64,000 nt of DNA from Naegleria gruberi (lineage: Eukaryota). The stretch lies in NCBI GenBank assembly GCA_000004985.1, contig GG738892.1. One strand, given 5' to 3'. The notes below the pieces were generated by a model. The model was given only the letters and a program-made list of their open reading frames with translations. It searched no databases and had not been told where the DNA came from. Made by a program: the position numbers and the translations under genes. Of this stretch, positions 2,845 through 60,000 are shown piece after piece. How positions within the stretch are numbered: position 1 is the stretch's first letter; every line of letters begins with the position of its first letter.

Positions 2845-3416
2845 TTCTTTTACTCAAGAGATAAGACGAGAAGGGAAATGGAATATCATTGATTTGGAAT
2901 ACTATTAAAGCATGAATATGGGCATGATACTAGTTACATCATTACGAGTTGTGTGAAACGAACTCTATCCTCCATGTATCAAAGATGTACCAGTAATATC
3001 TATTGAACAGAATGCAAAGTGTCTATTTGTTTGGATAATACACCAGCCGCAACCAACGAATGATGCAAGATAATCATAAAAAATATTCACAACTGTCTTT
3101 GACCATTGCTGTTTAAGGATCCTGATGTTAGATCTTGACAAAATCTGAATACTGCTTTTCTTTAACATTGTTACTCCCGTTATTCAACTTATTACATATC
3201 TCTCAATAGCGACATAAACTGAAATCTTGTGCTAGGGCTGAAACTTTTTCCTTCTAACAATTCAAAAGCCATCAAAAGGAGAGAGAACATAAAATTCATA
3301 CTGTCAAAAAAACAGAAAAAAACGAGTAAGAAAAACCGCTGTTCATCTACAGCAACAACAGCCTCAACAAGAATAACAAGAAGCCTCAACAACTTTGGAA
3401 AATAATTTTAATACTG

Positions 3417-14460: not shown

Positions 14461-14680
14461 TTCTGTAAAACCCCTAATATTATTATTTCCAAAAGATATT
14501 ACAAGAAAGTCAAGATCCGATATTCCACATTCAACAATTAATATTTACCATAATAACGTTCAAAACAACATCATTGACTAAGAACCTTACTATAAGTCTA
14601 ACCTACATTTTTTTAATTCCTTAAACTTTAAACATTTTTCGAGAGAAGCAAACTTGGCGCCAATTTCAAATTCAAAAAAA

Positions 14681-21690: not shown

Positions 21691-23178
21691 ATGGAAACCA
21701 CCACAACTATTGATATTCAAGCCTTGAAGAAGGAATTGGTTTTAGATTTGATTCAAATTGGTGCTTTGAAATTTGGTAGATTTACATTAAAGTCCGGCAT
21801 TGTTTCTCCTTTCTATGTGGATTTGAGAATTATTGGACCAAAAATGTTGCGCCAATTTTCTGTACTGTTATATCATGTGATGACAGTAAAGGGATTGACA
21901 AACATGGAAAAGAGAGTTATTTGTGGTGTTCCTTATAGTGCATTGACATTCTCATCCTGTATGTCCATGACTTATGATTTACCTATGGTTATCTGTAGAA
22001 AGGAAAGAAAGCAATATGGTACTGGAAATATGGTTGAAGGTATCTACACTAAGAATGAAACTAATTGTATCTTAATTGAGGATGTCATTACTAGTGGAGC
22101 TAGTATTGTAGAAACTGCTGAAAAATTGGAAAATGAAGGACTTTTGGTGACAGATGCTCTCGTCTTTTTGACAAGAGAACAACTTCCACTCACCAATGGT
22201 ATGCACATCTTGAAGAAGGGAGAAAAGGTTTACAATGTTCATCCATGTTTGACCATGACAGAAGTCACACAAGTTTTACTTGACGAAGGTAAAATGTCAC
22301 AAGAACAAAGAGAAGATATTCTTCAATTTATTGGCACTAATACTTTCTCGGAAACCAAGACAACTGCTGTGCCACAAAAGAAGAAGGAACTCACATTTAC
22401 TGAAAGAGCTGAATTGACAAACAATGAATTCTCAAAGAAATTGTTCAAGTTGATGGAAGAAAAGCAAACTAATTTATGTGTTGCTGCTGATATTACTAGT
22501 AAGGATGACCTTTTGAAATTGGCTGATGAAACTGGTCCAGAAATTTGCATGTTAAAGACTCACATTGATACTTTGGATGATCAACCAGATGAACAATTCA
22601 CTCAACAACTCAAAGAATTGGCTAAGAAGCACAACTTTTTAATTTTCGAAGATAGAAAGTTGGCTGATATCGGCCAAGTTGTCAAGCAACAATATGCCAG
22701 AGGTCCATTCAAAATTGCTCAATGGTCTGATCTCTGTAATTCTCACTTGGTTAGTGGTGGATCTGCTACTGTTAAGGCTTTGAAGGAATCTCTCAAGGAA
22801 GAAAATATTACTGAACCAAGAGGTTTGCTCTTGATTGCTCAAATGAGTACTGAAGGTGCCACTACTGGTGAATCCACAAAGCAAGAAGCACTCAAGGTTG
22901 CTTTGGAAAATCCAGATTTTGTCAGTGGTTTCATTTGTCAAAGCAAATTGAGAGATGATCTCGATCAATTCCTCTACTGCACTCCTGGTGTTAGACTCGA
23001 TGTTAAGGGAGATTCATTGGGCCAACAATACAACTCTCCAGAGTATGTAGTTTGTGAAAAGAAGTGTGATGTCATTATTGTGGGTAGAGGTATTTACCAC
23101 GACAAGGAACGTCAAAATGCTGCCAAGTTGTACAGAAAGCTTGGTTGGGAAGCTTATCAAAAGAGAATCCAACAATAA
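21691..23178 (+). CDS. UMPS: bifunctional UMP synthase (orotate phosphoribosyltransferase + orotidine-5'-phosphate decarboxylase fusion)
   Basis: The N-terminal half is OPRTase-like (GALKFGRFTLKSGIVSPFYVDLR, the PRPP loop ILIEDVITSGASI). The C-terminal half is ODCase-like (CVAADITS...KTHID...IFEDRKLADIG...IIVGRGIY). A single 495-aa ORF with no intron. Confidence 0.9.
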   Translation: METTTTIDIQALKKELVLDLIQIGALKFGRFTLKSGIVSPFYVDLRIIGPKMLRQFSVLLYHVMTVKGLTNMEKRVICGVPYSALTFSSCMSMTYDLPMVICRKERKQYGTGNMVEGIYTKNETNCILIEDVITSGASIVETAEKLENEGLLVTDALVFLTREQLPLTNGMHILKKGEKVYNVHPCLTMTEVTQVLLDEGKMSQEQREDILQFIGTNTFSETKTTAVPQKKKELTFTERAELTNNEFSKKLFKLMEEKQTNLCVAADITSKDDLLKLADETGPEICMLKTHIDTLDDQPDEQFTQQLKELAKKHNFLIFEDRKLADIGQVVKQQYARGPFKIAQWSDLCNSHLVSGGSATVKALKESLKEENITEPRGLLLIAQMSTEGATTGESTKQEALKVALENPDFVSGFICQSKLRDDLDQFLYCTPGVRLDVKGDSLGQQYNSPEYVVCEKKCDVIIVGRGIYHDKERQNAAKLYRKLGWEAYQKRIQQ

Positions 23179-29817: not shown

Positions 29818-31440
29818 ATGATAAACACAACACAACAACAACAACAACCTAAATCTGCTAAATTACTAGATGCCACCAATAAGATTCAAGCCATTCTCGA
29901 TAAACAATTTGATAAGCTGCCAGTGACCAAAGATATTCCAAGATTACTGAAGAAGATTTATTTGATTTCTCCCAAGACAAGATCAGAACAAGCCGAAGAA
30001 GCACACGATGAATCTCTTGCCAATCAACAACAAGAAGATTCTTGGAAACACAAAACCAACATTTCCTTTAATCCTGAAAACCATTCAGATCTTATCACTC
30101 CTGATGACATTCCAAAAGAAATTATATTCTATCAATTCATTGAATCAATAGTGAAAGATGTGTTAAATTCAACCGATCAATTTAATCTTCCAACTTATGA
30201 AGAATATATTTCACACATTGATTTCAATGATCATCGTACTCTCAACAATTATTTGATGCATGCCGTAAAATTTGGAGATTTGGATTTGACAACACCAACT
30301 GAGTCGGAACCTCCAACTGGAAAGGATGAAAACAAGAATCATCTTTTACTTCTCCTCAAATGTTGTCAACAAACTATTGTCATCAATGTTCTGATGGGAT
30401 TACGTGAATTTACAATGAAACATAAGATTCATTTCAAGGATGCTCGTGGTGCTTGGCGTATTTATATTGGTTCTGATAGTCCAAATATTTCAACTTCCTA
30501 CTCTTCATTCTATGTTGCTCATGAACGTTCTGAACAACTATATATGAAACGTCTAGATTGGATGCAACAATACGGAATATCTGATGAAGAATTGGTCAAA
30601 CTTGAAGAAAACGATCCAAGAGAACAAGTCAACTTTGCTAAAGCAGCTATGAAACAATTATTCCAATTTAAGTGGCAAATCAAATTGTGTTTTTCAAAAG
30701 ATGTTGATGGTAGTGATTTCACATTAACACATGTCAATATTTCTCTCCTTGGTATTGATTACAGCAATGAAGATTTAACAGTCAGTCACCAAAAGTATTG
30801 TGAAAAGGAAGTTTCTTTATTGGAACAATACTTTAATATGTTTAAATCTCAAAGTCAAAATGTATCATCACCAATGAGTGCATCATCTGACAATGTGTTC
30901 ACTCCAAGTACACTTGAATTCTCAAAGATAAGTCTTGGAAGTCCATTCAACTCTCCAAGGACGCCTGGTACAGTTAGCAGTCCATCGACTACTGTTAAGC
31001 CATCACCTCTCACAAAACATATTGTGACGACGATTGCTTCACCAGAGGATAACTCTGAATCAAACACAGTTGTAATAACAAATAATAACAATAATAATAA
31101 TACGACATCATCTGTAGTAGTGGAAAATAGAGAGCAGGAAAAAGAGGTTAGTGAAACTGATACTTTAATTTTTAAATCTTCTAACAAATCTTCTTCAACA
31201 CATAACAATTTTGATAATAGCCAAACTCAAATACTGAAAACTAGAGAGTACGGGTCAACTAGCTCAAACCATTCTGATAATGTTCATATTTCAGATATTT
31301 CGAATGAAAATGTTTTATTTTGCATACCACGATCGTTACTAGTGGCGATCCCTGTTGTTGGTAGTTTATTTTCAAAAGTATCCAAATCAGCTCTATCCAA
31401 AGAACAAGACACTGAAGAGAAAAAACTGCTTGATAATTAA
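29818..31440 (+). CDS. hypothetical protein (540 aa) with an N-terminal poly-Q and a C-terminal Ser/Thr/Asn-rich tail
   Basis: Long ORF with coding-like composition and a globular middle region (...ARGAWRIYIGSD...). No motif I can name with confidence. Confidence 0.5.
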   Translation: MINTTQQQQQPKSAKLLDATNKIQAILDKQFDKLPVTKDIPRLLKKIYLISPKTRSEQAEEAHDESLANQQQEDSWKHKTNISFNPENHSDLITPDDIPKEIIFYQFIESIVKDVLNSTDQFNLPTYEEYISHIDFNDHRTLNNYLMHAVKFGDLDLTTPTESEPPTGKDENKNHLLLLLKCCQQTIVINVLMGLREFTMKHKIHFKDARGAWRIYIGSDSPNISTSYSSFYVAHERSEQLYMKRLDWMQQYGISDEELVKLEENDPREQVNFAKAAMKQLFQFKWQIKLCFSKDVDGSDFTLTHVNISLLGIDYSNEDLTVSHQKYCEKEVSLLEQYFNMFKSQSQNVSSPMSASSDNVFTPSTLEFSKISLGSPFNSPRTPGTVSSPSTTVKPSPLTKHIVTTIASPEDNSESNTVVITNNNNNNNTTSSVVVENREQEKEVSETDTLIFKSSNKSSSTHNNFDNSQTQILKTREYGSTSSNHSDNVHISDISNENVLFCIPRSLLVAIPVVGSLFSKVSKSALSKEQDTEEKKLLDN

Positions 31441-32284: not shown

Positions 32285-32355
32285 TGCGTCGACCGGGAAT
32301 TGAACCCGGGTCACGGCGATGGCAACGCCGTATTCTACCACTAAACCATCGACGC
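32285..32355 (-). tRNA. tRNA-Gly (anticodon GCC)
   Basis: The reverse complement reads GCGTCGA-TG-GTTT-AGTGGTAGAAT-A-CGGCG-TTGCCAT-CGCCG-TGAC-CCGGG-TTCAATT-CCCGG-TCGACGC-A. It forms a canonical cloverleaf with a 7-bp acceptor stem, a GTGG D-loop, a TTCAATT T-loop and the anticodon GCC. Confidence 0.85.
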
Positions 32356-32479: not shown

Positions 32480-35400
32480 ATGGATGATCAGTGGCCCACC
32501 CACCAAATTGACAAGAATGATGATCAAACTATTGATGTGGTTGGTAACCTAAAACCGAAGGAAGCGATCAAGGAGGTGAACAAAAAAATTAAACAATTAG
32601 AGAATGAAATTAATTCCCACTTGTCCTCGTTTGATGTTAGTTTTGACTTTGGAGAAAATGGAGACTTCCAAAGACTGTTAGTTACCATTAGAAAGTTTGG
32701 TAAAACATTTGCTAACGAAACTTTTGTAGCTTGTACAGACAAAAGCTCTCCAAGTATGATCTTTAGGTATTTGGAGGTGGCAGAAATATCATCTGCTAAA
32801 AAATCAAATGAATTTGGCATTGAAAAGACACAATACTATTATGTAAGTAATTATACTAGTGGCATGTCAAATTCATTTCAAAAAGTTATTACAAGATATT
32901 TCAAAATATCTCAAAAAGAATATGAATATGGAAGAATCGCTATTCGGCAAAGCAAAGAAAATGTTATTTGGTAAAACTAAGAGTGAACAGCTTTTAGATG
33001 AGTTGGAAATTATTTGTAAAGACAGATTCTATGAAGTCAACAACAAAGTGCTAGAAGAAGGTGTCGATGAAATTTGTGATTTCATCCAAAACAAAAAGAA
33101 AGAAGAAGCAAGAAAAATATTTCTTTCTCTATTTATGATGGTTTCTAAAAATCCTGACATATATTCTAATGTCAATCTCTTTCAAGTGGCATGTACTCAT
33201 TTATTACTGACACTATATGTTGCTAATAATCCACCTCCTGTTGTCTTTAAATGGATAAGTGAAATTCTCGTTACTAGTGCAAAAGATTACTCCAAATTTG
33301 CCCATAATATCAGGAAAATAATGTTGCTGAGTGGATTGAAAAACTTTGAGTTTGAATATGTATTGGTATTGCATCAATTTAAAAATAATCATTTTGATCA
33401 ATGGAATATATTTTGGAAAAAAGCCAGTATTTCAGCTGAGCTGCACGATTGGGTTTGTGAATATTATTTTAGAGTGTTTCCAAATAATTGGTATCATTTG
33501 GAAATTACTTTCTCCTCAATTATTCAACCTCAAAACTCCAAATATTTACCAATTTATGTATCTAGTTTATTGCAGAGATCACCAGAATATTTCACCAATT
33601 TTTGGAAGAACTATCTAAATAATTTAGACATGACAAAAGAACCACTCTACATATTTTGTCTGCAATTTTTATGCTATAACATACAGACATTCTTAAATGA
33701 TCTATTACTCAAGCAAAAGCTCATTTCTAGTCTTGCCACAAAAGAAATCCTTGATTTCTCTGAAAATACTCTTCAGTCTATTCTCCAAACAATTCAACAA
33801 TATGGAGTGGATTACTATTTGGGTGCACTGGAATTCTCACTAAAGAATAATGCCAAATCTGATAATCTGACCCCCAAAAACATGAGATTAGCAATCAAAT
33901 ACTTTCCAAATCAAGTGTCTAATGAAACTTTCATGATATTTTTAACAAACCAGATGAAAAAGAGGGCCAGTGTTGATGTAATATTCGAAATGATCGATAG
34001 TTACATGAATGTGAACGGATTGGATTTACAAAGAGTATTGTCCTTTTACACGAGTTGGTTTGGTTTAACAAAAGATTTCAGACATTTACAAATTTTTGAT
34101 ATTCTTGAATCAAAATCTATTGAATCTTTCATTTCTGAATTGGATGAAAATTCAGCGGAAACAATTGTATTGGCTTTATCTAACCTTTTTAATGATACAT
34201 CAGCAAAGGAGGCAAGACTGAAGTCTGCCAAGCAATTGTTCTACTTAGGATCTGATAATCTAACCAGACATCATTATGTATTTTATAAGGCATTTATCAA
34301 TTCATTGTTAGACTCTACTGATATGTTGGAAAGACTTAGAATAGTTTCATTAATCGCTGATGACATGTCTACTTCAAAGCTATTTTCGACTTTTGCTCCA
34401 TACCTTTTAGAAAATGCAATTGTAAATAGGGAACAAACAGGAATCAAGTTTTTCCTTGATTCTGAAAAGTACCTCAACATATTTATTAACACCTGGAAAC
34501 ATAATCAAAATTCAAAGGAATGGAAAGAGTATCGTGACTTATTCGTAAGTGCGGTAAAGAATCCTCTTCAAGACTTGACAGATAGCATTTCAGACAACCA
34601 GATAACGATCAAGGATTTGGAATTGTTACAAAAAGAAAGATATCGTTTTAATTCACTGATCGAGAAATTAGATTTAGCTAAAGTGAATGGAATAGAAAGA
34701 AAGATAGAAACTTCCAAGTCTGTAGAAAAAGATATTCAAGAATTGACTAAAATTATTTCATGGTTAAAAAGGTTCCCACTGCTTATGGAGTTTACACAAC
34801 ATTTATCATTACTGGATGAAACATCTACACTCTCAGAATTGGAATCTAATGTTGAAAGCCTCAAGGCACAACTTGATTATATTGATAACAGAAGAGACTT
34901 GATAATTTTTCTCCACGATGAAGACAGTCTATTGTTCCACTCTCTATTCAAAAAATTTCTTCATGACTCTGGGGAAACTGGTGATATTATAGCAGTATCT
35001 GAAATATTTACAAGAGTGATTGAATTCTTGGAACACATTAATATGCAAAATATTCAAAGTTTGAAAGAGTATGAGATTTTAGATCTTTCTAAGCAGCTGA
35101 GAGCTAAAGGAAAAACTCTCTCTGGTGAGATTGAACTTCTATCCTCAGTTCTTAACAAGACTAGTTCAGGAGGTCAATTTAATATCAATTTGGAGGTTTT
35201 AAGAAAAGCACTAAACTTGGAAGAGCTTGGAACTGGATTAGAATATTTTGTTGATTGTATGCAAGACTACAATATGGAGCTTGTTAAAGAAGAGAGTTTC
35301 AATAACATAAAAAGACTCAAAGATAGATTGTACGGTCTGAGAGACATTCCTCTTTCGGAAGTTGAAGTAATTCTTGATGTTTCTAATGAAGCAATGCAAG

Positions 35401-38400
35401 GTTTGGACGGTTATCACACCAAATATTTTAAAGATTTATTAACTCCAGAGTCAAAAGGATTAATTCAATTTTTGAAGGATAATTTGTTAAGCTTTGAAGA
35501 TTCTATCAAAGTAGTAAGGACAAGAAGTAGAAACTCTAAATTCCACGAAGAAATAGTGAATTCTTTAATTATTGCCAAAGAACTGGTCTCTCCTTTACTC
35601 AATCAAAAGATCACCTTCCAAGATTTTAGAAATAAGATTCTTGCCTTATTCAACAAGGAAGAGGATCTTTTCAAGCTTAAGGAACTTCAAGTTGTTAACG
35701 AAAATCTTACAACCATCAAAATTTTATTCTCTAGTACAGCCACTATCCACCTTGATGATGTTTTTGATAGTGTCAGGGCAATAATAGAAAAGGGAAAGTT
35801 TATTTCCACACCAGATTCATTAATCGTTAGCTACGAAGATAAAGAAATATCAGGAGAAGAGCTAGTTGATTTGGTTAGGGTTGCTATTTTCAGATCTTCT
35901 GATTCAGAAAATGACCAAAATATCAAGATGAAACATGATTTACAAAACTTTATATTGCTTTATCAAATGGCAGAGCAAATTCAGTCAACTATCAAAGAGC
36001 TAATCAAAGAGGGTTATCCTAAATACCATGATCAAGAACGAATCGAAATTAATGAAAGAATGGAAAAATTAGAGCTTGAAAAGAAGAACAATGCTTTTAA
36101 TGCAAAACTTGAAAAATGGAAAAAATCTATTGAGGACCTTGTGGAATCACAACCATTAGTTTTAAATTTATCAAGAAGTCAACTAACAAAATTTGTTTCA
36201 CTCTTCAAGGATAGTTTAGAAAGTGAAGAAAGGGAATGTCAAAGTCTTATTCCATATATAATGCTAATTGTTAAAGAATTGTTCAGAGATAATCTGAAGC
36301 ATTATCCAATTACAGAAGAAGGATTGAAGGAAATTTTGAGTGGTTTCAAAAGTACAACAAGTGCAAAAGAGATTTTGAAGCTTTCTGGTGAATTTGTACA
36401 GAAAATTATTGAAAGTATTGCTGGCGATTTAGATCAAGAAAGAAATAACTACGAAACCAAAACACTGTATGATGTGAATGGCTCACAAATACCAATTATT
36501 CTACTTAAAATATTCCAAGAAAATATCATTCAGTACTCTGGTGATAATAGTGTTTTGATAGTCAACAATTCCAATATCTTCTACTGTGATGAAAGTACAA
36601 GGAAAGAGGACATTCAATGGTTTTGTAAAAGAAGGAAAGCTTTCCCGGAGCTCACTTATGCTCTGGTTCATGTGAACAAGTTAGTGCTCAGTGTGAAGGA
36701 AGAGTTGATCAAGTTTGAGTTTGAAGCTCATGAAAAGAACCAAAAGGTAGGATTGACTACTTTGATTTTCACATCAGACGCATCTAAAGAAGCATTCTCA
36801 TTTATTGAAACAAAGAATGACATTGAAGGTATGGCCCAAAAGAAGCCAATTATTAGCAAGTACCTTTCAGAAAGTTGTAAGATAGAGAAATTTGAGACTG
36901 TTAAGGGAGAATCAGCTTCTGGTAAGACTCGTTATATTCAATCAGAAAAACGAGATAATGAGGTCTATGTGAGAATTGCAGTACATGAAGAATTTTCATA
37001 TGACTATTTTTATGAACAATTGTGTTCTTATGATTTTGAAAATTCACCAAAGGTTTTAATTCATTTTGATGTTTCCTATGTTTTTGAATTGAGAAACTTT
37101 GAATTATTCTTACTTGAATGGATCTTTGGTAGATGCTTGCAAAGTAAGAAGGGTCAACTGGTTGATACTTGGGGCAACACTAAAGAATCAATTCGTATTT
37201 TTGTTGAAATACCAAGTAGCTTTGAAAAAGTCAAGTTGGATTTAATATCTTTAATTGAGACTACTATTGGACCAAAATCATTACATTCAGATCTTGCAAG
37301 TTTTGATTTTGGAGAGGAAAAAACAAGATATGTAGCCTCAATGTTTACTTTGTTCAATTCAAAAAAGATTAATGATATTAATCGTTTCTTGAATGTTGAC
37401 AAGAATTTAGTCTCGGAAGAAAAGTCGAGACAAGTGCTTACTCAATTTTTCAGCGTAAGCAAGGTTACAAAAAGCCATTCATTGAGAAAAATATTCATTG
37501 AATTGATGTATGAAAGGTTAAGAGGTCTTGAAAATTATCATATTAAGTTTTTGAAATTGAAAGAGTCCAACGAGTTTGGTCAAGATATTTACGGAAATGC
37601 TCAAGAATTAATTTTCACAATCAATGGAACTCTCTTCCCTGTATTTAAAGAAGAATGTGAGGTGATGACAGATAATACTATTGAACGATGCTGGAGTGAC
37701 CTTCCCGTAGTATTTGCAGTACCAAATCTTACAGATGATATACCCAATTATAATATCGTCAGATGTTCTAAATGTAGCACTACTAGAGAGTATATTGGCA
37801 TGCAACCACTTGATGTAAAAACTAGCACACTAGCAGAAATACGTTCAATATTGACATCCTCTTTCGAAGTTAATTCCATAATTGAAATTTGTGAAAAGAC
37901 CAACTATTTGCTAACTAAGGACTTTGCTATCAAATTATTTTTGTTAGATGAAAGAAGAAAGGTTGGCAGATCTGTTATTATTGAAAGTGAAACTGGTGTG
38001 GGAAAAAGTGAATTGCTTCGATTTTATTCAAATATTTTAAATTCCAACAACAAATTATTGCCTGATATAAGATTTGAGCTAAGGAAGTGGCTGTGTGAAA
38101 CTGTTGATCAATTCACTTCCAAGAATAATATTCAAACAGAGGTTAGAACTAAAAATATGGACAAATGTAGATCCAGAGAATATATTGTAAAGCTGTTGAA
38201 AGAAACAGAAGAACAAGTTGGTCAACAGTTGTTGCAAGAAATTACAATTTCTCTAGTAAGCGCAGTTAAGAAAATATTTGATGAGTTCAAATTAATTGAA
38301 AAAACAGACCTTATTAACTCCACTTTTGAGGCTCTTGAACAACAGAATTATGATTTATGGACAGTGGATATGATTGCTGACTTTTTAGCTCAAGCTGAGT

Positions 38401-41400
38401 CAGCAAGACCTGAAAACTCTATTTATTTCAAGATTTTGATGCATAGTGGTATAAGTTCACAAGAAATAAGACAAACTATAAGAGATATCGAAAGAAACAC
38501 TTTGAGATTAATCAATTCAGGATATCAAGACTTAAAGGTTGTTGTTTTCATTGATGAGTTGAATACAAGCAGTTGTATGGGCATTATGAAAGAGCTATTT
38601 GTGGACCATACATTAGACGGTCAATTGTTACCAAAATCTATCTTTTTTGTTGGTGCCATAAATCCAAAATTGCAAAATGAAGAATATGTAGTTAACGAAA
38701 TTGCACCATCCATGAAACTTATCAGATTTAACTATGCAGATCTCTCTAAATATCAAGAGCAAGAATTTTTGGCTCTACTGATCGAATTAGAGCAAAAGAA
38801 GCGAGATGAACATGAAGGATTTGTACATGATTTACAAACATTCATTTTATCTGCCCAACGTTTTGTTGCAGAGTCTAAACAATTGGATAAGAGAATAAGA
38901 GTTTCAATCAGAGATTTAACAAGGGCATGTAAACTATATTGGTTTTTGAAGGATAATGAAGTTCTTTACTACTCTGCTAATCTCTCCATAGAACAATGTC
39001 ACATTATTTGCTTATACATGGCCTTAGCACTGTCCTATTATTTCAGATTACCTTCTAGTGAGAGAACCAAATTTGAGGAAATGATTGATAGAGAAGCACA
39101 TACTCAGGTGCAATATGGAATCTTTGCATTTTCTCAAGTTGTCTCAGAGCAATTAGGATATTTCTATCAAAAAGCAAAACAACGCGGATTTATTCCTCCA
39201 GGTATTGCAAGTACAAAAGCATTATTAGAAAATTTCTTCACTATGGTCATTGGAATTCAAGTTGGAATAGGAATCAGCTGTGTTGGTCCTCCAGGAAATT
39301 CAAAGACTTTATCTTACACTATTGCAACACAAAAGAAGAAGAGTCTTTTTGTTGGAATGAAAACTGTTCATACCCAACATTATCAATGCAATGAATTGTC
39401 TACTGCTAATGAAATTGAATTAGTAGTAAAGAGCCAAGTTGAAACTAGACGAAAGTATGAAAGAGCAGGAATGGTTAACGAAATTTGTAGTGTATTAATT
39501 GATGAAGCAAGTCTTCCAATAGAAAAGAAAAATTCGCTCAAAGTTCTTCATTACTATCTTGACAAACCAACTATTAGCACAGTTCTCATTTCAAACAATT
39601 TATTGGATGCAGCTAAATCTAATAGATGTATTCAAATTGTTCAACCAGAGACTAGCTTTGAGGATTTGAGAGCACTTTGTCAAGGTTGTTTAATGTTAAA
39701 TGAAGATGACATTAAGCCAAATTCAAGAATAGATAGAATTATTACAGCATTATGTAAATCATTTAAAGAGGTCAATTATGTGCTTACTAGCACAATTGTT
39801 AAGCAACATAATGGCACTGGTGGAATTTTCCATTTGAGAGATTTCGTCTACTTCTTAAGAATGCTATCTAAGAATAAGGGTAATCACAAGGAGGTTTTCT
39901 CTGGTAACAATATTTACTATTGTTTACAACGTAATTTTAATGGTGTTCCAGAAAATGATTTCCAAAAAATTCAAGAGCTTTTCTTGACAAATATTAACGA
40001 AATGTTAGGAACAAAGATTCATATCGAAAAGGAAAAGATCAAGCAATATATTGATGTAGTATATGATAGTATTCACGATAGTTTATCAAAATACGATGAT
40101 CCAAATCAATCTCACTACAGACATACTATGATTATCGATCCGAGCCAAGCTCAGGCCTCTATTAAGCTTTTAACATCCAACAATATAATTGACCAATCCA
40201 AGACAAAGGTTGTTTACATTAGCGATTTTAAGGGTGATACAAATGATTTGTCCCTTTCTCAAGAAATTAGTGAAGTCAAAAATTGTATGGAACTTGGAGC
40301 ACCGGTAGTATTGGTAAATTCATCTGCCATTTCTACAAATTTCTTTGACGTTTTTAACAAACACTTTACCAAGGTAAATGATAGATACTTTGCCAATGTG
40401 TCTATTAAAGGAAAAACTCACCCATGTGAAATTAATTCCAGCTTCCACTGTATAGTCCACGTTCCTATTGCACAATACAGAGAGTTACCTTTGCCATTCT
40501 TGAATAGATTTGAGAAATACATTATTGGTGCAGAGAGAGTTTTGAAGAGTGATCTTTTGGTTGAAAAAGAGGAGAGCAAGAAGGCAATTTTCGATCACAT
40601 CAGAAGAGGAGTTAATGACTTTGTTCGTCAATTTGATGCTAGTACATTCTATGGTCTTGTTGAAGATGAAACAGTGGATTTATTAATCAAATCAATCTAT
40701 CAACAATCCAAAGACTCTATTCAAATTAAGAAACCACTAACAATTAAGAATAATAACATTATAGAACTATTGAAAGAAAATGGTATGGAAGATAATATCG
40801 ATTTAGAGGAAGAGGACGAAGAAATTTCCATCAACAAACTGAGGAGCTACATTAGAAAGATTAACTTTCAACTGTTGCAAATTGCCAAACCTGAAGATAT
40901 TTTCCTCAGAAGAAAATTCATTCCAAAATCCTACCTAGTGGAGTACCTCACAAAACAAGAGCACTTTTGTACAATTTCATTTTTGAAGAATGCCATAGAC
41001 CAACATTTCAAACAATCCACAACAAATAATTCAAAGTACATTCTTTATACCAGACACTCAAGTGGTATTCACACTCTCAATGATACTGACCGTTTAAAGG
41101 AGATTACCTCCGTTGCATGTACTTCTGAACCTTTGAAGTCATGTGTGAACAATCCAAGTGAAATTATTACCCTTGCTTCACTTTCTTCATTCTCTTCTCA
41201 ATTAGAATTCCACAGATTCTTGGGAGAGTTTGCAGCTGATCATCAAAAGCTTGTTTTACTATTAACCATTGATATGTCAATGATTTCTAAAAACACTGTG
41301 AATTTTGTAAAATTCAAGATTGAGAATATTCTTTCTTCTCCAATGAAGAAGGTTAAGAATATGACACCTTTCGTTTCTCTTATTCTCTACTTCCCTCCAG

Positions 41401-44400
41401 AGTCTTCTCATTTCAATGCTGCTTACGATAGTATTTTCTTAGGGTGGGACTATTATTACATTGACAGTTTAAGAGGAGACCTTGGTGATGGTCAAATTAG
41501 TCAATATAGAGATAGCAGATACTGGTTTAGTGTTGCTGTTGGATTACTGAAGGGATTCCGTGCATCTGATAAACAGGCCTTCCAAAATTCTTTCATTCCA
41601 TTATATAACAAGCTTTTGGAAGATTATATTCGTTCAGATAATACAGCCGTTGCATCTGGATCACTTAGTCCATTTTTCATGAGAAGAAATATTAACAAAC
41701 TGGTAGACAAGAAAAAGTTTATTCTGACAAATATTAACAAGCTTGAATTATTGAGAGACATTGTGTTGAACATGTTTGCTGATAGGTGGAATAACCAGTT
41801 CCTTTCTCAACTCGTTCAAAAAATATGTACCGATATTACCAGTGGTAAGATAGTCAATGGTATCATTCAAACAATTTCCTATGAACTTTCGTCTGTCCTA
41901 GAAGAAATGATGTATCCTATCACAAGAAAATTAATTTATCTTACACCATCCGTACAAAAGATTCTCAATGTAGAAGATCAATCTACACTTTGTTTACTAC
42001 GTAAATTGATAGAGGTTTTCATAACAACAAACAAGAAAAAGAGCAAGAGCTCAGATATTTTACATGTATCAACCTATCAAAGTACAAATGAACACTTGCC
42101 TCTTTCTACTCTCCTTATTGAAAAGATGATTCTAAATGAGAAATCTGATAATCTAGACGAAGTGGTAGAAATGATTGAGAATGACAAGGAAAATTTTGAA
42201 AAATTCCGTCTCGATATGATTTCTTTCTATTTTGAAAAAGACATTACAAAAGAAGACCAAGCAATAAGATTAGTTGATATTCTTATTTCCCCTATTTGGA
42301 ATAGTGCAGAGGGAAAGAAGAGTATGAGACTACTCTCACATCTTTCACAAACCAAAGTCAAGAATAGTATCAAAATCTTACTTAACGTTCTTTCCCAATT
42401 CAAGTCTATTAATTTCTTGACAGACGAATTCAAAAAACATTTGCAAGGAAAGCAACTCCATGAGTGTTTGGAAGTCATCTTTACTTACATTCTTGATTAT
42501 GTATACAAAAATATAGGAACAGCTCTTGAAGAGAAAGACTTGGATAGTATTAATAGTTGGATGAGCGAACTTTCATCTATCAACTTTATGTATATTAAGG
42601 ATATTGCACCTAAATACTTTAAGAGTTCAAGATTCTCCATTCTATTCTTGGTCTACTATGTGTTGAAAGGATGGGTTTTAAGTGAAGAGCAAATTGAATA
42701 TTTGTGGAAAGGAATTACAGAACTATACAAAAATCCAACATACCTACCAGATAACTTTATAGATATTTATAATTGCTTCAAAGATACTGTTACAACCTTC
42801 TTGGACCCTAATCAACAATCTATCTGGATTAATAATGTTACGAGATTTGCCTTTGTGCATATTATTGACATTTGGTCGGCTCCATCATTGACAAACTTTT
42901 TCACAATTATTTCACAATACGAAAAGGATGAAAATTCAATTTTCAAACAACTTAATATTGGCTTGATAACAAGTATTACAAAAACCATAATGGCTCGTTA
43001 TCTGCAAAACAAATTCAACCAAAATATGACGAATGTAGTTGAGCAAGAATTGAACAATTACTCTGATGAAAACTTTGTCCCAGAAGAATTATCTTCAAAG
43101 AAACAACCATTCTCTGTTCTGCTTCTTCAATCATCATATCTTTCTCATCACTCTCAATCAAAATGGGAAACATTCCTTCCACTCTTTACAAGACATCAAG
43201 AGGATGGAGGCAATAGTAAGCTTTCCAAACTTATCACTCAAGCCAACAATATTTTGCTGATAACAAAGCTCTCGAGTCATCTCCTCAAAGATGATGATCC
43301 ACAAAAAACTATTGAAAATATGGATGCAGAAACATGTGAATTGATTACTAATGTTATGAAACAAGAAAACATGGCTCTTTATTTCCTTTCAAGATATACT
43401 TCTGATGTTGAGTTGGAGATGATTCTTACTACAAATAGAGGAGAATTGGGAAGAATAGGACTGGCAAATTTCCATATACCATCAATTAAGAAGAATTTTA
43501 AATCTCATCATTTCTCATTCATGCATGATAATAATCAAGTGTACACAGATTTGAAAAGACATATTGAATCTAACAATATTCAACAGATACATAATTTTAT
43601 CAATACCAATGCTGCCCAGCATAAGTATTTCATTAGAATGTGTTTGATTGTAATCTCGTATAATTTCTACTTTTTGGAATGTAAATCTTGTGATGCTGTA
43701 TTGGCTATTTTACAAGACAGAAATGTATTGAATACTCTTAGTATTGATGACTCTGAGTTGAAGGCATTCGTATTCTTTGCTACTAAACCAGTATCTCTTC
43801 CAGTTGAGAAACAAGATGACTGGTTCGCATCATATTACTTCTCTCAGGAATTCATCAACTCTAACAGGGATAAGATGCTGACTCACCTCCTAGCAAATAT
43901 TACAGCAACTAATGTGGGCGTTCCAAAAGAGAAGAATCACTTGTATAACAGAATGTTTAATCCACAAGTATTGGCCAATTCATTCGGTCCTGGAAGTACA
44001 TATCAGGATAGGAACTGGGATTGTGGATATACTAGCTCTGGATACAATATTAATAACATTGAAAGCCACAATATTATGAATAGAAATCAGACATACCACT
44101 CAGCTTTGAACTCGCTCACTTGGGCTTCCTTTGTAATGTGCGTAATATTCGATCCAGCAAAGAATGAAAATGCTGCCAAAGGTGGACATATGTGTAATTG
44201 TATTGATGATGTCAAATTCAGGCCCAATTTAAGCAATTTGGAACAACTTCAAACCTATATTAAGATTAGGGCTGATACTTTCTGTTCTATTTTTGCTCAT
44301 TCACCTAATATTATTGGAAATGTGGACCCAATTATTTTCTTTACCTCATCTCTCGAGGAATTCACCAAGCAAGCACCAAACAGTAATGATTGTTTTGGAT

Positions 44401-46469
44401 TCTTTGCAAATAATAATACTCCAACCATTAGAGCATATGAAAACTTTTGGATGAACTCATGTTTCATTCCAACACTCAATCGTTATGCTAACATTGTTGG
44501 TAAAATGAATGCTGGTCAGAAACTTCTTCAAGATATTGGTCAATTCAAGGAAAGATCGTTGGCTATTAGAAAATGTGTTGATTTATTCCCTTCAAGAGAA
44601 AATATTCTTGCTTTCTTCTCCCAAAGATATACTGATATTGAAGATAATGCTGAGCTCATGACAGTAAGGCAAATAGTCAAACATAAGGACTGGTTATTGT
44701 TTAGTTATTATTTTATTGACTTTTTGAGTTTTTATGTTAAATTACACAGAGGTTTGAATGGCAAGATTGAAAGAGACTCAATTCATATGACAGTCAAGGA
44801 TGCATTAACACTCATTACCAAAGATAAGAGTAAACAAGAGGAAGAAGCCATCTACGAAAGTTGGGAATGCTTTAAGAAATCTTGGAATATTGTATCAGAA
44901 AAACAAGAGAGAAACATTGTTTGTCAACATGCTAACCAAGCTGAAATACCAATTATTGATGAAAACTCAATTCTCTCTCATCTGCTCTATGTTGAAGGTG
45001 GTAATAATGAGATTGGAACATTACTTTTAACAATTTATAATGCTCAATCAGATATTCAACAAGGACATTCTTTCCCAGATACCATTGATGCAGCCTATGT
45101 TATGGAACTTGATGATGTCTTTTACAAACTATTATTCAGCAAATTTGAGGATGATAACTTCTTTGAAAATATTCAATACTATGTAACAATCAATAACGGA
45201 GATATTAACTTTGATTGGAAGTCATTGGAGAGTTATTTTGTTGAATCACTTTCTAAAGGAAGGCCAAGACTTTTGGTTAAAAAGGATCAAGTTATTAGTC
45301 CACAAGCCATCTGCAAGTTCAAGGAGGATATCCCAATTGAGGAAGATTTACCTGATGAGATAATTCAAGAAGATAGCCTTTCTCTGGATACTTATGCATC
45401 TGAACTGAATACCTTGATTGAAAAGATGAATAGTATGGATATTTCATGGAAAACATTCGACAATACCAAGAAGAAATCATTTATGAATTCACTCAACTTC
45501 AGAGATACTAAAAAGATTTTACAAATTGCCAAAGATACATGTCAAGCTGCCACAAATTTGATTGGAAAAGTTCCCTTCAAATCATTTAGTATTGTCAACT
45601 CAGAAAGGGAAATTTTAGGATTCTCTGAATTTGTATTGGACATTATTTACAATAGAGATGAAGTTAAATCTCTATACGATAAATTCTCCTCCACGTTCAG
45701 AATTCCAATGTCAACCTCAACAAAGGAGAAATTTGAGAGAATTACTCTCTATACCATGAAAATGGTAGAAACATCCAATCCAGAATTGGATAATTTCCTG
45801 TCTGATTTGAGAACTATTGCTACTGTTATTTACAACAATGAAAAGGATATTGTTAATGCATACGCTTCAATGACAACTGCTAGTCTTAGAACCGTTTTTG
45901 AGTCTCAAATTCAAGTCAAAAATCACGATAATTTAGCTCAAATCCTTCCAAACTATTTCCTTGTTAAAAATTTGGTTCCTTACATTGAAAATATTAGAAG
46001 ATTAATTGGTAAAATTGAGCTCAAGAAATCTTCCATGAAAACGGAAAATTACCAAGAGCTTGTCCCTGATAATCTGAAAACAAGACCTGAATCTCCTATT
46101 GATCCATTGGACAGTTTGATTTCAAAAGTAGAAGAACCTGAAGAAGAAGAAGAAATTCCACAACCTCCTCCAATGTTTAATGTGATGCCACTATCTAACC
46201 TACCAATCATGCGTCCAAACATGCCTTCTAACAATTACACAATAGATCCAAATCAAATGAACAAGATTAAGAACCTTATGGAACAAGCCCAGAACGAGAA
46301 GCAAATTTCTCTACTTCTGCAACCACAATTATTGGATAATAATCTTCTATTGAGATTGGTAGAATTATTGGAAGAGGCAGAAATGTTGACAGAGGAAGGT
46401 AAAGAACTGCAACAAGCAATTTCAACCAACCAAACTATTATTTTACAAAACTTTAACAAGTTGAGATAA
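32480..46469 (+). CDS. giant protein of about 4,650 aa with two distant P-loop-like motifs; candidate RNF213/mysterin-like or dynein-like AAA+ ATPase with no detectable RING; two exons (32480..32842, 32886..46469)
   Basis: The 13.6-kb ORF is uninterrupted. A 43-nt GTAAGT..AG intron joins the upstream exon (MDDQWPTHQ...EKTQYYY) in frame to LLQDISKYL.... The first P-loop-like block, VGRSVIIESETGVGKSELLRFYSNIL, has a Walker B-like VVFIDELNTSS about 190 aa downstream. A second, degenerate Walker A, ISCVGPPGNSKTLSYTIA, has a downstream VLIDEASLP. The remainder is mostly alpha-helical, with no transmembrane or signal segments. Confidence 0.75.
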
Positions 46470-53632: not shown

Positions 53633-55597
53633 ATGTCCACAGACGCCAACGCTCACGATCATCATCAGGAAGTAAAAGAACAACCACAACAACCAGTAAA
53701 CTCACTCTATGAGAGGGCTAAAAGGAAATTAAAATTGGAAACACCAGCCTCTCAAGCTGTAACCTACTCCCAGTTGGAATTACCATATCATGCTCCTCCA
53801 GTCATTTACAAGATTGTATACAATGAGGAGAGTAGGAGTGCCACATTATTTGAAAGAGTTAATACTTGGAAGGGATCCAAGGAAGAATTGAGAGAAAATG
53901 AAAAAGCCTTGTCAAGAATTAGACAAGATCAACTCACTTATCAACAGCAACAGCAAAAACAACATTCGAATATTTCTTCGTCTTCTTCATCTTCTTCAAC
54001 TTCCTCATCATCGGATAAATCCTCTAACAATGAATCGAATACAATCATTAATATTACTAATAATGTTGGAGACTTTTTAGCATATCACTTTTTGAAAGGA
54101 TGCTATCCCGATATTGAATGGACATCAGTCAATTCGGATTCTGCTCTTGCTGATTTATTTACAAAGGAAAATTCCATGTTAAATAAGAAGGCTAATTACA
54201 TGTGGGCCATTGATGCCAATTTTAATTTCATATTTGCTCCAGAACATCAAATGGATTTTGCATTGCAAAGAATTAGAGTTAAGCATGGAGATTTGACAGC
54301 TACTGGTAAAACTTTGATTGGAAGTTTGGATAATTTGACAGTTGGAAGATTGCCAGCTCGGTAAGTACAACATTAAAAGGAGGAAATAATTGACATTTTG
54401 TACTCAAGTGTTGGAGGTGAATTTAGATGGGACGATTCGAAAGGAACATGGAGAATTGACAATGATTCATCCTATTGCTTTTTCAGAGAGGATGAATTGG
54501 TAATTTCAAATACAGCCAAGGTGAAATGGCAATTTATTACTGAACTATTCCTGAGATCGGTTGGTGTAAAGACCAATGATATTTTATGGTTGGATTTGGT
54601 TCAATCTAGAAAACTGGATAGTTTTGTGGTTCAAAAATTATCCAAAGCCTTTGTAAGAATGAAGAGAGATGACGAAAAGCAAGCAGCTATCAATGATATT
54701 GGATCCAAGTTTTCTCTTGTTAACTTGTTCAAGGGTGTCAATTTATTTGATATTGTTTTTGAAGCTTTTGGAGCTAAGAGTTATTTTTGTACATTAGGTA
54801 AATTGCATGTTGAGATTTTGGAGGCTTCTAATTTGTCCTATGTGGATGTATTCAAAATTCAACATGCCTACTCTTACTGCACTGTTGGGCTGAGAGGATC
54901 AGACCTTGTAGAGCATAGGAATTGGTGGGATAGATATTATCAAACCAAAACTGTTAAAAGAAATCAAAATCCTCAATTCCATGAATCTTTCGCACTCTAT
55001 GTATCAAGTATGGATATTCAAATTTTGGACTTGAAGGTTTATCATTCCAAACATCAACTTATTCCAGTTTTATTAGGAGAATGTGAATTGGAATTGAGTG
55101 ATTTGAACTTTAAAGATTATGATGAACTGGATTTGTGGTTACCATTGGTAGTTCCAAAAGGAATTTTGGATATTGCTCGTCCAAGTCCCTCGAGCAAGCA
55201 CTCTGATACAGGCATCAATGCACTCAACAATATCTTCTCGGGTACAAGTCTCGTTCAAGTGGATTCAATTTCTCAACAGTCATCTCCAACCATTGTAGGT
55301 TCAATGGTTGATATTGGAACCAATCTCAAAAAGGTCACTGGTATCCATAATACTAGTTCATCAAGAGTTGGAAATGTTTCTGTCAAGGCTGCCAGTATGA
55401 GCATGCAAACATTTACAATACCATCCAAAACAGATCAAATGATCCATGTTAAACTGAGATGGGAACCACACAGCAAGACAGATTCTACAAAGAATATTCA
55501 AGTTGAAAGTACAGCATCAACAAGTCCAAAGAGTGAACAATTATATACCTATGATCAAATCATGAAAGATCAAGAAACTGATACAACAGTAAATTAG
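53633..55597 (+). CDS. hypothetical protein (about 636 aa) with a central C2-like domain, two exons (53633..54360, 54409..55597)
   Basis: ORF 1 ends CG|GTAAGT. A 48-nt intron (..TCAAG) joins it in frame to ORF 2, reading ...GRLPAR|VGGEFRWDD. The segment LHVEILEASNLS...YCTVGL...TKTVKRNQNPQFHESFALYV looks like a C2 beta-sandwich. The N-terminus has a poly-Ser tract. Confidence 0.5.
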
Positions 55598-57020: not shown

Positions 57021-60000
57021 CTACCTTCTCCTTGTGTTTTTCTTTTCTCTAGAATGTGTAATGACACAGTACAATTTCTTATGGGATTCAGATGGATTAC
57101 TAGTAGATGTACCTTCACTGTCAGATTCTTGATCCTTATTATTGGCACCAACATCAACCACTTCAGAGTAGCATCTGTAATGATAGTAAAAACCACTCAT
57201 AAACATGATATTGTCCTCCTTTGTCATTGTAAGCCTTTGCCCACAGAGAGCACATCTGCCACCAATTCTAACTTTGACACCCTTTCTTTGTTGTTTGAAT
57301 AATTGAGCACTTTGTTGTTTAAGATCGGCTTGGAGAATTTCCTGACAACCTTCTTGAAGTGTTTTCTGTTGTGAAAAATCAGTAATGAGTCTTGTTAACT
57401 TCTTCTTGAGTCCTTCAATGTCCATTTGCTCTGGAATCTTTCTTACGAGAGCAGATGGGTCAATATAATCCGAACCATGCTCAGAAATGTGATCCATAAG
57501 TCCAGAAATGAATTTTGGCTTTTTTAAACTCTTATTGAGTAAATTTTGGTACAATTCGCTATCTGGTTGTTTTTCAACAAATTCAATAGCTAAAGTAACA
57601 TCTTCAAGCTTGTCAATAATCAATGCCAGGGCTTCGTTGGTGTTACCCATTCTTCCTAATAAATAAACGATTCCTTTGTACAATTGTTTGTTTCTTTCTT
57701 CTAGAGAGGCATCATCATCATTGGTATTAATATTCTTCTTCTTTTCGTATTGAACAAACTCGGTGGCAATAGTATAGCTCGATTCATCATCGTCCATCAA
57801 GTCATCTTGATCTTCGTTTCTGCCAGTTTTTTCTGATACAGGTACAGTATCTCTCTTGTACAAGTATTCGAAAAACTTGAGTACTGGCTTATTTAAATGT
57901 TGTTCACAAATCTTGAGAGCTTGTTCAATCTTGTAGGATTGACTTTGTTCCAAGAACCAAACAAGTCTCTTTGAGTCAAATTCTGCATACAACTCAACTT
58001 GAATAATGTGGTATCTGTCACGATTGAAATTCTGTACATTATGGTAAAATAAGCCATCCAAGTATTTCAAGAGTTGAACTCTTTCATTCTTCAGTTGTTT
58101 GATGATTTGCTCGACCATGATATTTTCATGATGTTCAACACACAATCTCAAAGCTCTATCTTCATCAAAACTTATCAGGTCCAATATTTTATCTTGCACG
58201 GAGGAAAAAAGTGAGTGGGTTTGAATAAACTCGAAAACGTCTGATCTTTTAAGCTTAAAGTAAATATCAAGAGCTCTGTCATAGTGCTTTTCATACATGA
58301 ACAAGTTTGCCAAAGACTCTTGTAAGAGGGATATCTTTCTGGTGGCTTCTCTGGATTCTTGTTCTTTTCCTTCTAGAGTGGCAATTTTGGCTTCTTGTTC
58401 GAGAACCAAAATTCTTTCAGAGGTTACAGTTGTAATATTTTGAATATTATACAAATCTTGTGGCCATTCTTTGATACACTTGAGGAAGAGGTCAGGAGAG
58501 TTAAGGAGGAAGTAATTCAATTTCATTTCATAAATAGCATCCTTCAACTTTGGTTTGCTAATAGGAATGAATGGAATAATAACATGGAATTGTTTCAAAT
58601 CAATGAAGGAATAAATCCATTCCTCCCACAAATTCTCATCAACACCAGCCACATTCGGGACCATTTGAGCTGCTTCTTTGTATTGCTTGTTTTCCAACAG
58701 GTATCTCAAATACTTTTTGCCAATATCTAACATGGAAATATCCTTGAGTTTGGATTGATTAGCCTCACAATACTTGATAGCATCAAGGTATCTGTTCTTT
58801 TGCATGAGCCATTTGACGTGATCGTCATCATCTCTTGGACGAGCAGCAACAATATCTCTTGGAGAAAGGATATAGTACACTTCTTCTTGCTCATTTCGGT
58901 ATGGAGTTGCAACAGAAGAAGTGTATGCTTCTAATCTATAGTCAGTAGCAAAGTAACTTTCGAAATTCTTGATAGAGAGAGCATCACATGATTTTTCTTC
59001 ACCTTTCAAGTCCATAATTCTCAATTCTGGTCTTGGAGCAACCAATTTCTTCTTTGGCTTCTCATTAGCATTGTCCTCATCTCTTTCTTCATCTTCATCA
59101 TATGCCAATATGAGAAGACTGTCTTCATTTGAGTATGGAACAATACCAGAAATGTAAAACTCGACCTCAAACATTGCCAAAACTTCCACATATCTTTGAG
59201 ATTTTTGTTCCTTTGCATTTCTTCTTTCCTTGATTACAATTAAAGTTACACTCTGACCCCAACCAATTAAAAGTTGAGCCAAGCTCTTGGAATCCTTATT
59301 GTCAGATTGTTTGTTATCAACTGTAAACCTATCTGGTTGACACCAAGTCAGACAAGGTCTGTACATGTCTGGTCTAGGTGCTGATGAAGAACGTGAAATA
59401 TATGTAATTTTCTGATTAGAAACAATATCATAAACCTTGACACCAAAATCATTGGCCCAAGCAATAAAATCTCCAAACCATCTCACAGCATGAATTTCTC
59501 CTTCATCTTTGTGTATTACTAATTCCTTGTATGAAAACCAACCCTTCCTTTTCATTGTTAATTTTCCAGTTTTTCCACCACTAATTACAGACTTGTCACT
59601 CCTTGTAGAATATAATGGATCCAAAGCAACAGATTTCATTGGTCTATTGAAGAAAAATTCCATTAAATTACCTTCCTGTGCATTTCCAGACCCTCCTGAA
59701 ATAGAAGAGGCTACATTTGTTAGCATACTATTTCCTGTTATGACTGTATTAGCATCGGAATTAGGATCGAGGATCTTTTTATGAACTGTAGGATTTTGCA
59801 TATTGGCATAAAGGGCAGAATAAATATTGTACACTACCACTTTACCATCATTACTGCAACTTGCAATATATTCACCAGTACTATCTATTGTAAGATCGTT
59901 GATTGTTTCTGCGTGTGGTCTGAATTTTTGTTGTTGATTGTTATTTCCTTCAAAATCCAAAATGTACAAGTATCCCAAGTGAGTTCCCAAAGCAAGAAAC

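Follow-up and report, generated by a model that had tools for sequence, protein, structure and literature searches.

RNF213 (mysterin) is the main susceptibility gene for Moyamoya disease, and its product is a broad cell-autonomous immune ligase which ubiquitylates bacterial lipid A. Of the AAA+ modules of this giant protein, two, AAA3 and AAA4, are competent for catalysis; AAA2 binds ATP as structural glue and does not hydrolyse it, and AAA1 is not a catalytic site (PMC7311170). Ubiquitin transfer runs via the RZ finger: ATP binding to the AAA core activates transthiolation from the E2 enzyme, docked on the C-terminal domain (CTD), to a cysteine of the flexible RZ domain, and the RING is dispensable (PMC12075652, PMC7311170). 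In the RZ finger of the mouse protein, zinc is bound by C4451, H4455, C4471 and C4474, with C4462 as the nucleophile and H4483 as the general base (PMC12075652, PMC7311170). Here we describe a gene of about 14 kb from Naegleria gruberi which almost certainly encodes a divergent member of the RNF213 family. It lies in a stretch of 64,000 nucleotides (nt) of contig GG738892.1 (assembly GCA_000004985.1), the whole of which was analysed and is called the window below. An earlier note, made from the letters alone, had placed the gene at 32480-46469, described it as a possible RING-less RNF213- or dynein-like AAA+ machine and put its share of the window at 22%, the value which we also obtain. Residues are numbered throughout according to the public 4,515-amino acid (aa) model NAEGRDRAFT_81001.

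Relationship of the giant protein to RNF213

There is hardly any doubt that the gene is a divergent RNF213 family paralogue, whose product is one chain of about 4,500 to 4,650 aa collinear with RNF213. In a sequence search of the PDB, all nine matches (distinct chains) were RNF213, with expect values (E) of 2e-33 to 5e-29 over residues 1661-2543, which correspond to AAA3-AAA4. The alignments pair SETGVGKS with GETGCGKT (AAA3), FIDELN with FFDEAN, GPPGNSKT with GKPGSSKS (AAA4) and LIDEAS with VLDEVG. Identity to RNF213 in the AAA core is approximately 22%. Of these pairs, the first also bears out the statement in the earlier note that RNF213 has a Walker A of the type GETGCGKT. All motifs quoted there are present in the protein, namely SETGVGKS at residue 1689, VVFIDELN at 1874, GPPGNSKT at 2122, VLIDEAS at 2190, GGHMCNC at 3754 and CSIFAHSP at 3788.

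Collinearity with RNF213 extends well beyond the AAA core. Two overlapping hhalign alignments (Table 1), the first of them comparing a nine-sequence alignment of the clade to which the protein belongs (see below) with 11 RNF213 sequences, cover the distal N-arm, the linker, AAA1-AAA6, the hinge and the E3 module, where the regions are named according to the published domain map of mouse RNF213 (PMC7311170). AAA1, AAA5 and AAA6 of the Naegleria protein are covered by these collinear alignments only, and within the E3 part of the second alignment the per-column confidence is low. In the Naegleria protein 2,394 aa separate the AAA4 P-loop from the C-terminus, vs 2,395-2,440 aa in animal RNF213. 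A helical N-arm and linker come first in the chain, followed by the dynein-like AAA+ core and then by a C-terminal module, large and helical, which is homologous to the E3 module of RNF213.

The predicted structure points to the same family. An AlphaFold2 model of residues 1250-2449 (AAA2-AAA4) had a predicted local distance difference test score (pLDDT) of 81 and a predicted template modelling score (pTM) of 0.77. When it was used as a Foldseek query, eight RNF213 structures determined by cryo-electron microscopy came first (E 2.5e-31 to 1.8e-28, template modelling (TM) scores of 0.54-0.58, approximately 1,200 columns), followed by dynein motor domains, of which the best was an AAA2-AAA4 reconstruction (E 3e-16, TM score approximately 0.5). 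The structure prediction proposed in the earlier note as a check for an AAA+ fold was therefore answered in the affirmative, and the label of an RNF213/dynein-like machine without a RING agrees with both searches. A Pfam scan of the protein yielded only a sub-threshold match to AAA_7 (dynein P-loop) at residues 2112-2200, with 16.7 bits vs a cut-off of 25.8.

The ATPase sites

The protein has three P-loops, one each in AAA2, AAA3 and AAA4; two had been counted before, and the one missed was GESASGKT at residue 1329 in AAA2. As judged from the alignments, AAA2 keeps a nucleotide-binding P-loop without the Walker B glutamate, as does AAA2 of RNF213. In AAA3 and AAA4 both motifs, Walker A and Walker B, are seen to be kept complete at the level of the aligned sequences. 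In alignments of 19-31 sequences comprising both clades, i.e. that of the Naegleria protein and that of RZ-bearing RNF213, K1695, D1878, K2128 and E2195 are invariant and E1879 and D2194 nearly so, and several arginines are likewise invariant.

These data do not agree with the previous description of the P-loops as degenerate, since the Walker A lysines are invariant, the Walker B Asp-Glu pairs are invariant or nearly so, and the serine in AAA4 is found family-wide. This serine, which precedes the Walker A lysine, is present in human RNF213 (GKPGSSKS) and in the whole clade (GPPGxSKT); judged from these sequences it is a family trait and not a degeneration. The serine in place of the first glycine of the AAA3 P-loop is confined to the two Naegleria sequences compared. 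The suggestion that one module is catalytic and the other regulatory found no counterpart either, as both AAA3 and AAA4 keep the Walker A lysine and the Walker B Asp-Glu.

AAA3 differs from that of RNF213 in size. Between its Walker A motif and its Walker B motif there is a clade-specific insertion (Table 1), so that the spacing amounts to 184-271 aa in those clade members whose Walker B pattern was picked up nearby, vs 56-77 aa in RZ-bearing RNF213.

The C-terminal module

At the position of the E3 module, the Naegleria protein contains neither of the two zinc-binding domains. No RING was detected by Pfam (E <= 1) or by regular expression, in line with the previous statement that none is present, and the segment at the RING position contains a single cysteine. 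Similarly, there was no match of the protein to the Pfam RZ family PF20173, no match to a regular expression for the RZ finger in the protein or in the 69 other clade representatives screened, and no significant match in the Naegleria protein to a hidden Markov model (HMM) of the RNF213 RZ finger with its flanks. The representatives were obtained with phmmer, run exhaustively with the C-terminal 1,200 residues of the protein as query. It gave 70 cluster representatives including the query; an RZ or RING pattern was found in 0/69 of the others.

Homology around the RZ position emerged only with a profile of the clade. A clade HMM of the conserved C-terminal block (Table 1) detected animal RNF213 with E 1e-13 to 1e-17 (hmmsearch), and hhalign of this block against RNF213 gave a probability of 99.2% and E 1.4e-19. 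The motif preceding the finger is recognisable, with HLYNRMFNPQVLANSFGPGS of the Naegleria protein aligned to PLKNLAFSPANMAHAFLPTMP of RNF213. According to hhalign, approximately 35 residues of the RZ finger are gone, and the remaining NWDCGYTSSGYNI aligns, with low local confidence, to C-x-D-C-G-x-x-I-G-G-x-N-H. In these alignments the transthiolation cysteine, the general-base histidine and all but one of the four zinc ligands of the RZ finger are without a counterpart. At residue 3372 of an rnf213-alpha-like sequence from the hemichordate Glandiceps talaboti (P0060), the four zinc-ligand positions of the RZ finger are kept (C, H, CPQC), EAQ replaces the nucleophile motif ECG, and the histidine of IGGxNH is missing, so that this finger may be naturally inactive.

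The RZ position is occupied in the Naegleria protein by a loop of the form PGS-x7-DCG. In the clade alignment PGS-x7-DCG[YF] is the strongest feature of the whole C-terminal third: the aspartate and the cysteine (Asp3700 and Cys3701) are each present in 64/64 homologues, the following glycine in 58/64 and the glycine of PGS in 65/67, at a mean column identity of 12-16% in the surrounding region. In the structural model the loop lies at the margin of a segment predicted with low confidence, a position that recalls the mobile RZ domain. RZ-bearing sequences could not be forced onto the DCG loop by hmmalign. Alignment of DCG to the nucleophile motif ECG was considered and seems the less likely choice, since spacing and hhalign favour the zinc-ligand position in CxDC-G; caspase-like and papain-like readings with His3673 and Cys3701 as the catalytic pair were dropped for want of fold evidence.

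A Cys/His cluster further downstream, which had been proposed as a divergent zinc site, is not a conserved metal site: C3758 is a cysteine in 6/58, C3760 in 4/58, and H3793 a histidine in 8/52 homologues. Near the C-terminus, an acidic, proline-rich tail segment is predicted to be disordered (Table 1) and is followed in the model by a terminal helix of approximately 70 residues.

Phylogenetic position and distribution

The clade ranges over Heterolobosea, Amoebozoa, one choanoflagellate and one rotifer. Its named members, from N. fowleri, Willaertia magna, Endostelium, Mastigella, Mastigamoeba, Pelomyxa, the choanoflagellate Mylnosiga and the rotifer Adineta, are all annotated as 'hypothetical' or 'AAA+ ATPase'. 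Where the AAA core is present, the members carry G[DG]TGxGK[ST] and GP[PA]GxSKT. In a neighbour-joining tree of the AAA3-AAA4 core, the clade was set apart from RZ-bearing RNF213 in 60/60 and 40/40 bootstrap replicates.

Two other Naegleria species also harbour an RZ-bearing paralogue, namely C9374_014396 of N. lovaniensis (P0148, 4,930 aa) and FDP41_009489 of N. fowleri. C9374_014396 has a complete RZ finger at residue 4151 (WYRCAKGHVYFIDLCGLPLEQAQCPECGLPIGGSDH) and no RING by regular expression. A homologue search with its 600-aa RZ region returned one N. fowleri fragment only. In the tree it groups with animal RNF213, and in sequence comparison it matches Pongo RNF213 with E 9e-161 vs approximately 1e-29 to 1e-33 for the window gene and RNF213. 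Since the RZ-bearing Naegleria protein groups with animal RNF213, the window gene is a paralogue and not an orthologue of animal RNF213. Unless horizontal transfer has occurred, both lineages are older than the split between Discoba and Amorphea.

The orthologue of the window gene in N. fowleri is annotated as two adjacent genes, FDP41_003264 (P0134, 2,068 aa) and FDP41_003265 (P0065, 2,884 aa). A single protein of 4,577 aa from the assembly of a public sequencing run (P0135) falls into the same 90%-identity cluster as this orthologue. The split into two genes in N. fowleri is probably an annotation artefact.

Possible function of the C-terminal module

What the window protein does we infer by homology only. 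The reading towards which we lean, and which taken as a whole we regard as somewhat probable, is that of an RNF213-family paralogue acting as an ATP-gated transferase that depends on Cys3701. If RNF213 is taken as the analogue, AAA3 and AAA4 would bind and hydrolyse nucleotide as a switch rather than as a processive motor, and the nucleotide state of these two modules would gate the C-terminal module. Cys3701 would then be a nucleophile that works without zinc and accepts, as an acyl group, the ubiquitin or ubiquitin-like protein which an E2 hands over. Cys3701 is a candidate active site because Asp-Cys is invariant in 64/64 sequences within a region of 12-16% identity and is located at the RZ position. 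Based on this analogy, we tentatively propose Cys3701 as the functional centre of the C-terminal module, most likely as an acyl-accepting nucleophile. If so, the clade could represent a second type of transthiolating ligase under AAA+ control, of ancient origin, which would transfer ubiquitin, a ubiquitin-like protein or some other acyl group at an active site unlike the RZ finger; this generalisation we consider rather doubtful.

Several observations weigh against a transferase of this kind. In the hhalign alignment, whose local confidence is low, the partner of Cys3701 is the last of the RZ zinc ligands (CxDC-G; human C4528, mouse C4474) and not the nucleophile (human C4516, mouse C4462), and the position of the general-base histidine is taken by Ile3710, with no histidine there. 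A counterpart of the E2-docking CTD was not detected when residues 4050-4515 were compared with RNF213 C-termini (hhalign probability 0.7%, from an alignment of three species only), and Foldseek with the model of the C-terminal part failed to retrieve RNF213, though it was present in the library. Pelomyxa has two paralogues, in one of which (P0003 of Pelomyxa schiedti, annotated 'AAA+ ATPase', 5,283 aa) the DCG loop is deleted at residues approximately 4150-4190 (...NGFPSTALCKDVPRYKLILD...). Finally, in N. lovaniensis and N. fowleri the RZ-bearing paralogue could do the ligase job. Most of these points also feed a different explanation, which we consider about equally likely as the Cys3701 transferase, namely that the protein is a non-catalytic or 'pseudo-E3' paralogue, an ATP-driven scaffold or remodeller which lost the chemistry of ubiquitin transfer or never had it, and in which Asp-Cys-Gly is structural or binds a ligand. 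It would account for the absence of counterparts to the RING, to three of the four RZ ligands, to the nucleophile cysteine and to the general-base histidine, for the undetectable CTD homology, for the loop deletion in one Pelomyxa paralogue and for the existence of a separate RZ-bearing paralogue. It fits less well with an Asp-Cys pair that does not vary among 64 sequences of several eukaryotic supergroups while the region around it evolves fast, a pattern sooner expected of a residue that is catalytic or contacts a ligand than of a helical scaffold, and with the fact that the remainder of the E3 module has been kept at full length.

Two further explanations depart from the paralogue assignment itself. 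The overall collinearity and the conserved length would be expected of a true orthologue of animal RNF213 with a cryptic, highly diverged zinc-binding RING and RZ, and NPTYLPDNFIDIYNCF faintly resembles the RING core DPVCLPCDHVHCLRCL. However, with one cysteine in the RING-equivalent segment and one in the RZ-equivalent loop, with the clade split off in all bootstrap replicates of both sets, and with an RZ-bearing paralogue in Naegleria that groups with animal RNF213 and matches it far more strongly, such an orthologue is very improbable. Still less credible is an artefactual gene fusion or a known giant AAA+ protein of another kind, such as midasin or a dynein heavy chain, for which the sub-threshold AAA_7 match and the second place of dynein among the structural matches could be quoted. 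The PDB search retrieved no dynein or midasin sequence at E <= 1, the Pfam scan revealed no dynein heavy chain, MIDAS or VWA domains, and in Foldseek RNF213 is ahead of dynein by 15 orders of magnitude. Against a fusion speaks the single open frame, which is collinear with full-length homologues of Willaertia, of the N. fowleri cluster (P0135), of Pelomyxa and of others.

Gene model and candidate first exon

On the plus strand, positions 32859-46469 form a single uninterrupted open reading frame (ORF) of 4,536 codons, which at 33% GC cannot be attributed to chance. From its first ATG (32922), the translation is 100% identical to NAEGRDRAFT_81001 of N. gruberi, annotated as 'hypothetical protein'. 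The start at 32480 and the length of about 4,650 aa given in the earlier note hold in part. The stretch 32480-46469 comprises 13,990 nt and is not divisible by 3, and the ORF beginning at 32480 is in a frame different from that of the main ORF and reaches a stop at 32974; the public model has 4,515 aa. At the switch of the frames there is one GTAAGT donor only (32843), and removal of a 43-nt intron starting there joins the frames, with ...TQYYY fused in frame to LLQDISKYLKKNMNMEES, and results in a protein of 4,648 aa. A mini-intron of 17 nt (GTAAGTAATTATACTAG) was rejected because it does not restore the frame, which the 43-nt version does.

Further observations are consistent with a coding first exon. 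Its codon log-odds are 0.19 in frame and -0.27 and -0.76 in the two remaining frames; the main ORF has 0.216 +/- 0.043. The N-terminal gene model of N. fowleri spans the junction, where YYY/LLQDISKYLKKN pairs with KYIKLLRDLKSHIDKN (E 8e-24 for the whole alignment, 6e-4 for the junction alone), and the exon 1 peptide is collinear with, and weakly similar to, the N-terminal half of the protein from N. fowleri; no homologues of this peptide were found outside Naegleria. Other frame switches in the window correspond to GTAAGT...AG introns of 48-66 nt. The ORFs 14654-15592 and 15618-16448 (+) can be joined in frame by an intron at 15479-15536, and the ORFs 53633-54364 and 54398-55597 (+) by one at 54361-54408/54426. 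Because two adjacent ORF pairs join in this way, short GTAAGT introns seem to be typical of the region. We consider the predicted first exon and the 43-nt intron likely. A tRNA-Gly(GCC) gene, the sole tRNA gene in the window, is located at 32285-32355 (-), 125 nt upstream of the proposed start, and its position limits any 5' extension of the giant gene. The public annotation can be corrected from a hypothetical protein to an RNF213-like AAA+ protein whose first exon is probably missing. The coordinates of all features are given in Table 1.

Table 1. Features of the giant gene, with coordinates in the window.
Feature	Residues	Position	Strand	Remarks
Candidate exon 1		32480..32842	+	121 codons, begins MDDQWPTHQ; outside public gene model
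Candidate 43-nt intron, GTAAGT...AAAAAG		32843..32885	+	Alternative acceptor 32918 (76 nt)
Main exon		32886..46469	+	ATG of public coding sequence 32922; stop TAA 46467-46469
Region collinear with RNF213 981-2890 (distal N-arm, linker, AAA1-AAA4)	445-2226	34254..39599	+	hhalign probability 100%, E 1.6e-67
AAA2 P-loop GESASGKT	1329-1336	36906..36929	+	Aligns with RNF213 SERAGVGKS
VLIHFDV after AAA2 P-loop, no Walker B Glu		37053..37073	+	IHFDVS aligns with RNF213 FHLDVT
AAA3 Walker A SETGVGKS, Lys1695	1689-1696	37986..38009	+	Aligns with RNF213 GETGCGKT; Lys invariant, 31 sequences
Clade-specific insertion in AAA3 between Walker A and B		38010..38540	+	Mostly helical in model
AAA3 Walker B VVFIDELN, Asp1878/Glu1879	from 1874	38541..38564	+	PDB-search alignment and conservation
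Region collinear with RNF213 2737-5033 (AAA4-AAA6, hinge, E3 module)	2087-4218	39180..45575	+	hhalign probability 100%, E 5e-47
AAA4 Walker A GPPGNSKT, Lys2128	from 2122	39285..39308	+	Aligns with RNF213 GKPGSSKS; G, G, S, K invariant
AAA4 Walker B SVLIDEAS, Asp2194/Glu2195		39489..39512	+	PDB-search alignment and conservation
RING-position segment	3254-3295	42681..42806	+	Single Cys, no zinc-ligand set
Conserved C-terminal block	3480-4110	43359..45251	+	Homologous to RNF213 region containing and following RZ finger
PGS-x7-DCG loop at RZ position	3690-3702	43989..44027	+	Asp3700, Cys3701 invariant
Cys/His cluster GGHMCNC...CSIFAHSP	3754-3795	44181..44306	+	Not a conserved metal site
Acidic, Pro-rich tail, ...EEPEEEEEIPQPPPMFNVMP...	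4373-4441	46038..46244	+	Predicted disordered, pLDDT 30-35 over most; no counterpart in RNF213 alignment

The window is AT-rich (GC 31-37%) and its ORFs are densely packed. The neighbours of the giant gene are ordinary: they encode a protein kinase (3417-6200, +), a bifunctional uridine monophosphate (UMP) synthase composed of orotate phosphoribosyltransferase (OPRT) and orotidine monophosphate (OMP) decarboxylase (21691-23178, +), a GlfB-like protein (29818-31440, +) and Vps41 (57021-59990, -; E 1e-86). Several further ORFs of 300-940 aa in the window had no Pfam match.

Significance and comparison with known systems

The identification of this gene is important for several reasons. RNF213 has been described as 'expressed in all vertebrates' (PMC7311170), and in the full-text literature we found no paper on protist homologues when RNF213 was combined with Naegleria or other protist terms. 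The protein sequence described here is public and unannotated, and the clade is an old, undescribed sister branch of RNF213 present in several protist groups. The RNF213 family is thus much older, with at least two ancient paralogous lineages. As both lineages occur in Discoba and in Amorphea, the origin of the family, and possibly of a role in cell-autonomous defence, would lie near the last eukaryotic common ancestor. Further, one of the lineages lacks both zinc domains by which the enzyme is thought to be defined, but has preserved the ATPase switch and a full-length E3 scaffold. It therefore offers a natural experiment in which RING and RZ are deleted, and in which one can ask what the scaffold and the ATP switch do alone. 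It also raises the questions whether the RZ finger is an insertion into an older active-site loop, and what the ancestral job of the family was in free-living, bacteria-eating amoebae.

Among the known systems, ZNFX1 shares the RZ finger with RNF213, but it is a superfamily 1 (SF1) helicase and not an AAA+ protein; it has nothing specific in common with the window protein, from which the RZ finger linking ZNFX1 to RNF213 is missing. Midasin/Rea1 has, beyond a D/E-rich linker, a C-terminal MIDAS (VWA) domain, to which the window protein has no Pfam match. Cytoplasmic and axonemal dynein heavy chains resemble the protein in the fold and arrangement of AAA2-AAA3-AAA4; however, since dynein is not matched in sequence and no dynein heavy chain domain was found by Pfam, nothing points to an AAA1 motor site, a stalk or a microtubule-binding domain.

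The closest relatives remain within the RNF213 family. The RZ-bearing Naegleria protein (C9374_014396/FDP41_009489) belongs to the same genus and family, is of similar size and is likewise RING-less by regular expression, but it differs from the window protein in its complete RZ finger, its short AAA3 and its AAA4 P-loop GKSGSSKS. In comparison to the vertebrate giant AAA+ E3 ubiquitin ligase RNF213/mysterin (PDB 6TAX, 7OIK, 8S24), the Naegleria protein lacks the RING and also the RZ finger, the latter being replaced by the PGS-x7-DCG loop; its AAA3 is enlarged by an insertion of some 120 aa or more, and its N-terminal region is shorter by approximately 540 aa. At the same time, the two are single chains collinear over approximately 3,800 residues, and they share the AAA2 P-loop without a Walker B glutamate, the AAA3 and AAA4 P-loops of the types xETGxGK[ST] and GxPGxSK[ST], the distance from AAA4 to the C-terminus, and an E3 module whose homology is visible at profile level around the RZ position and beyond it.

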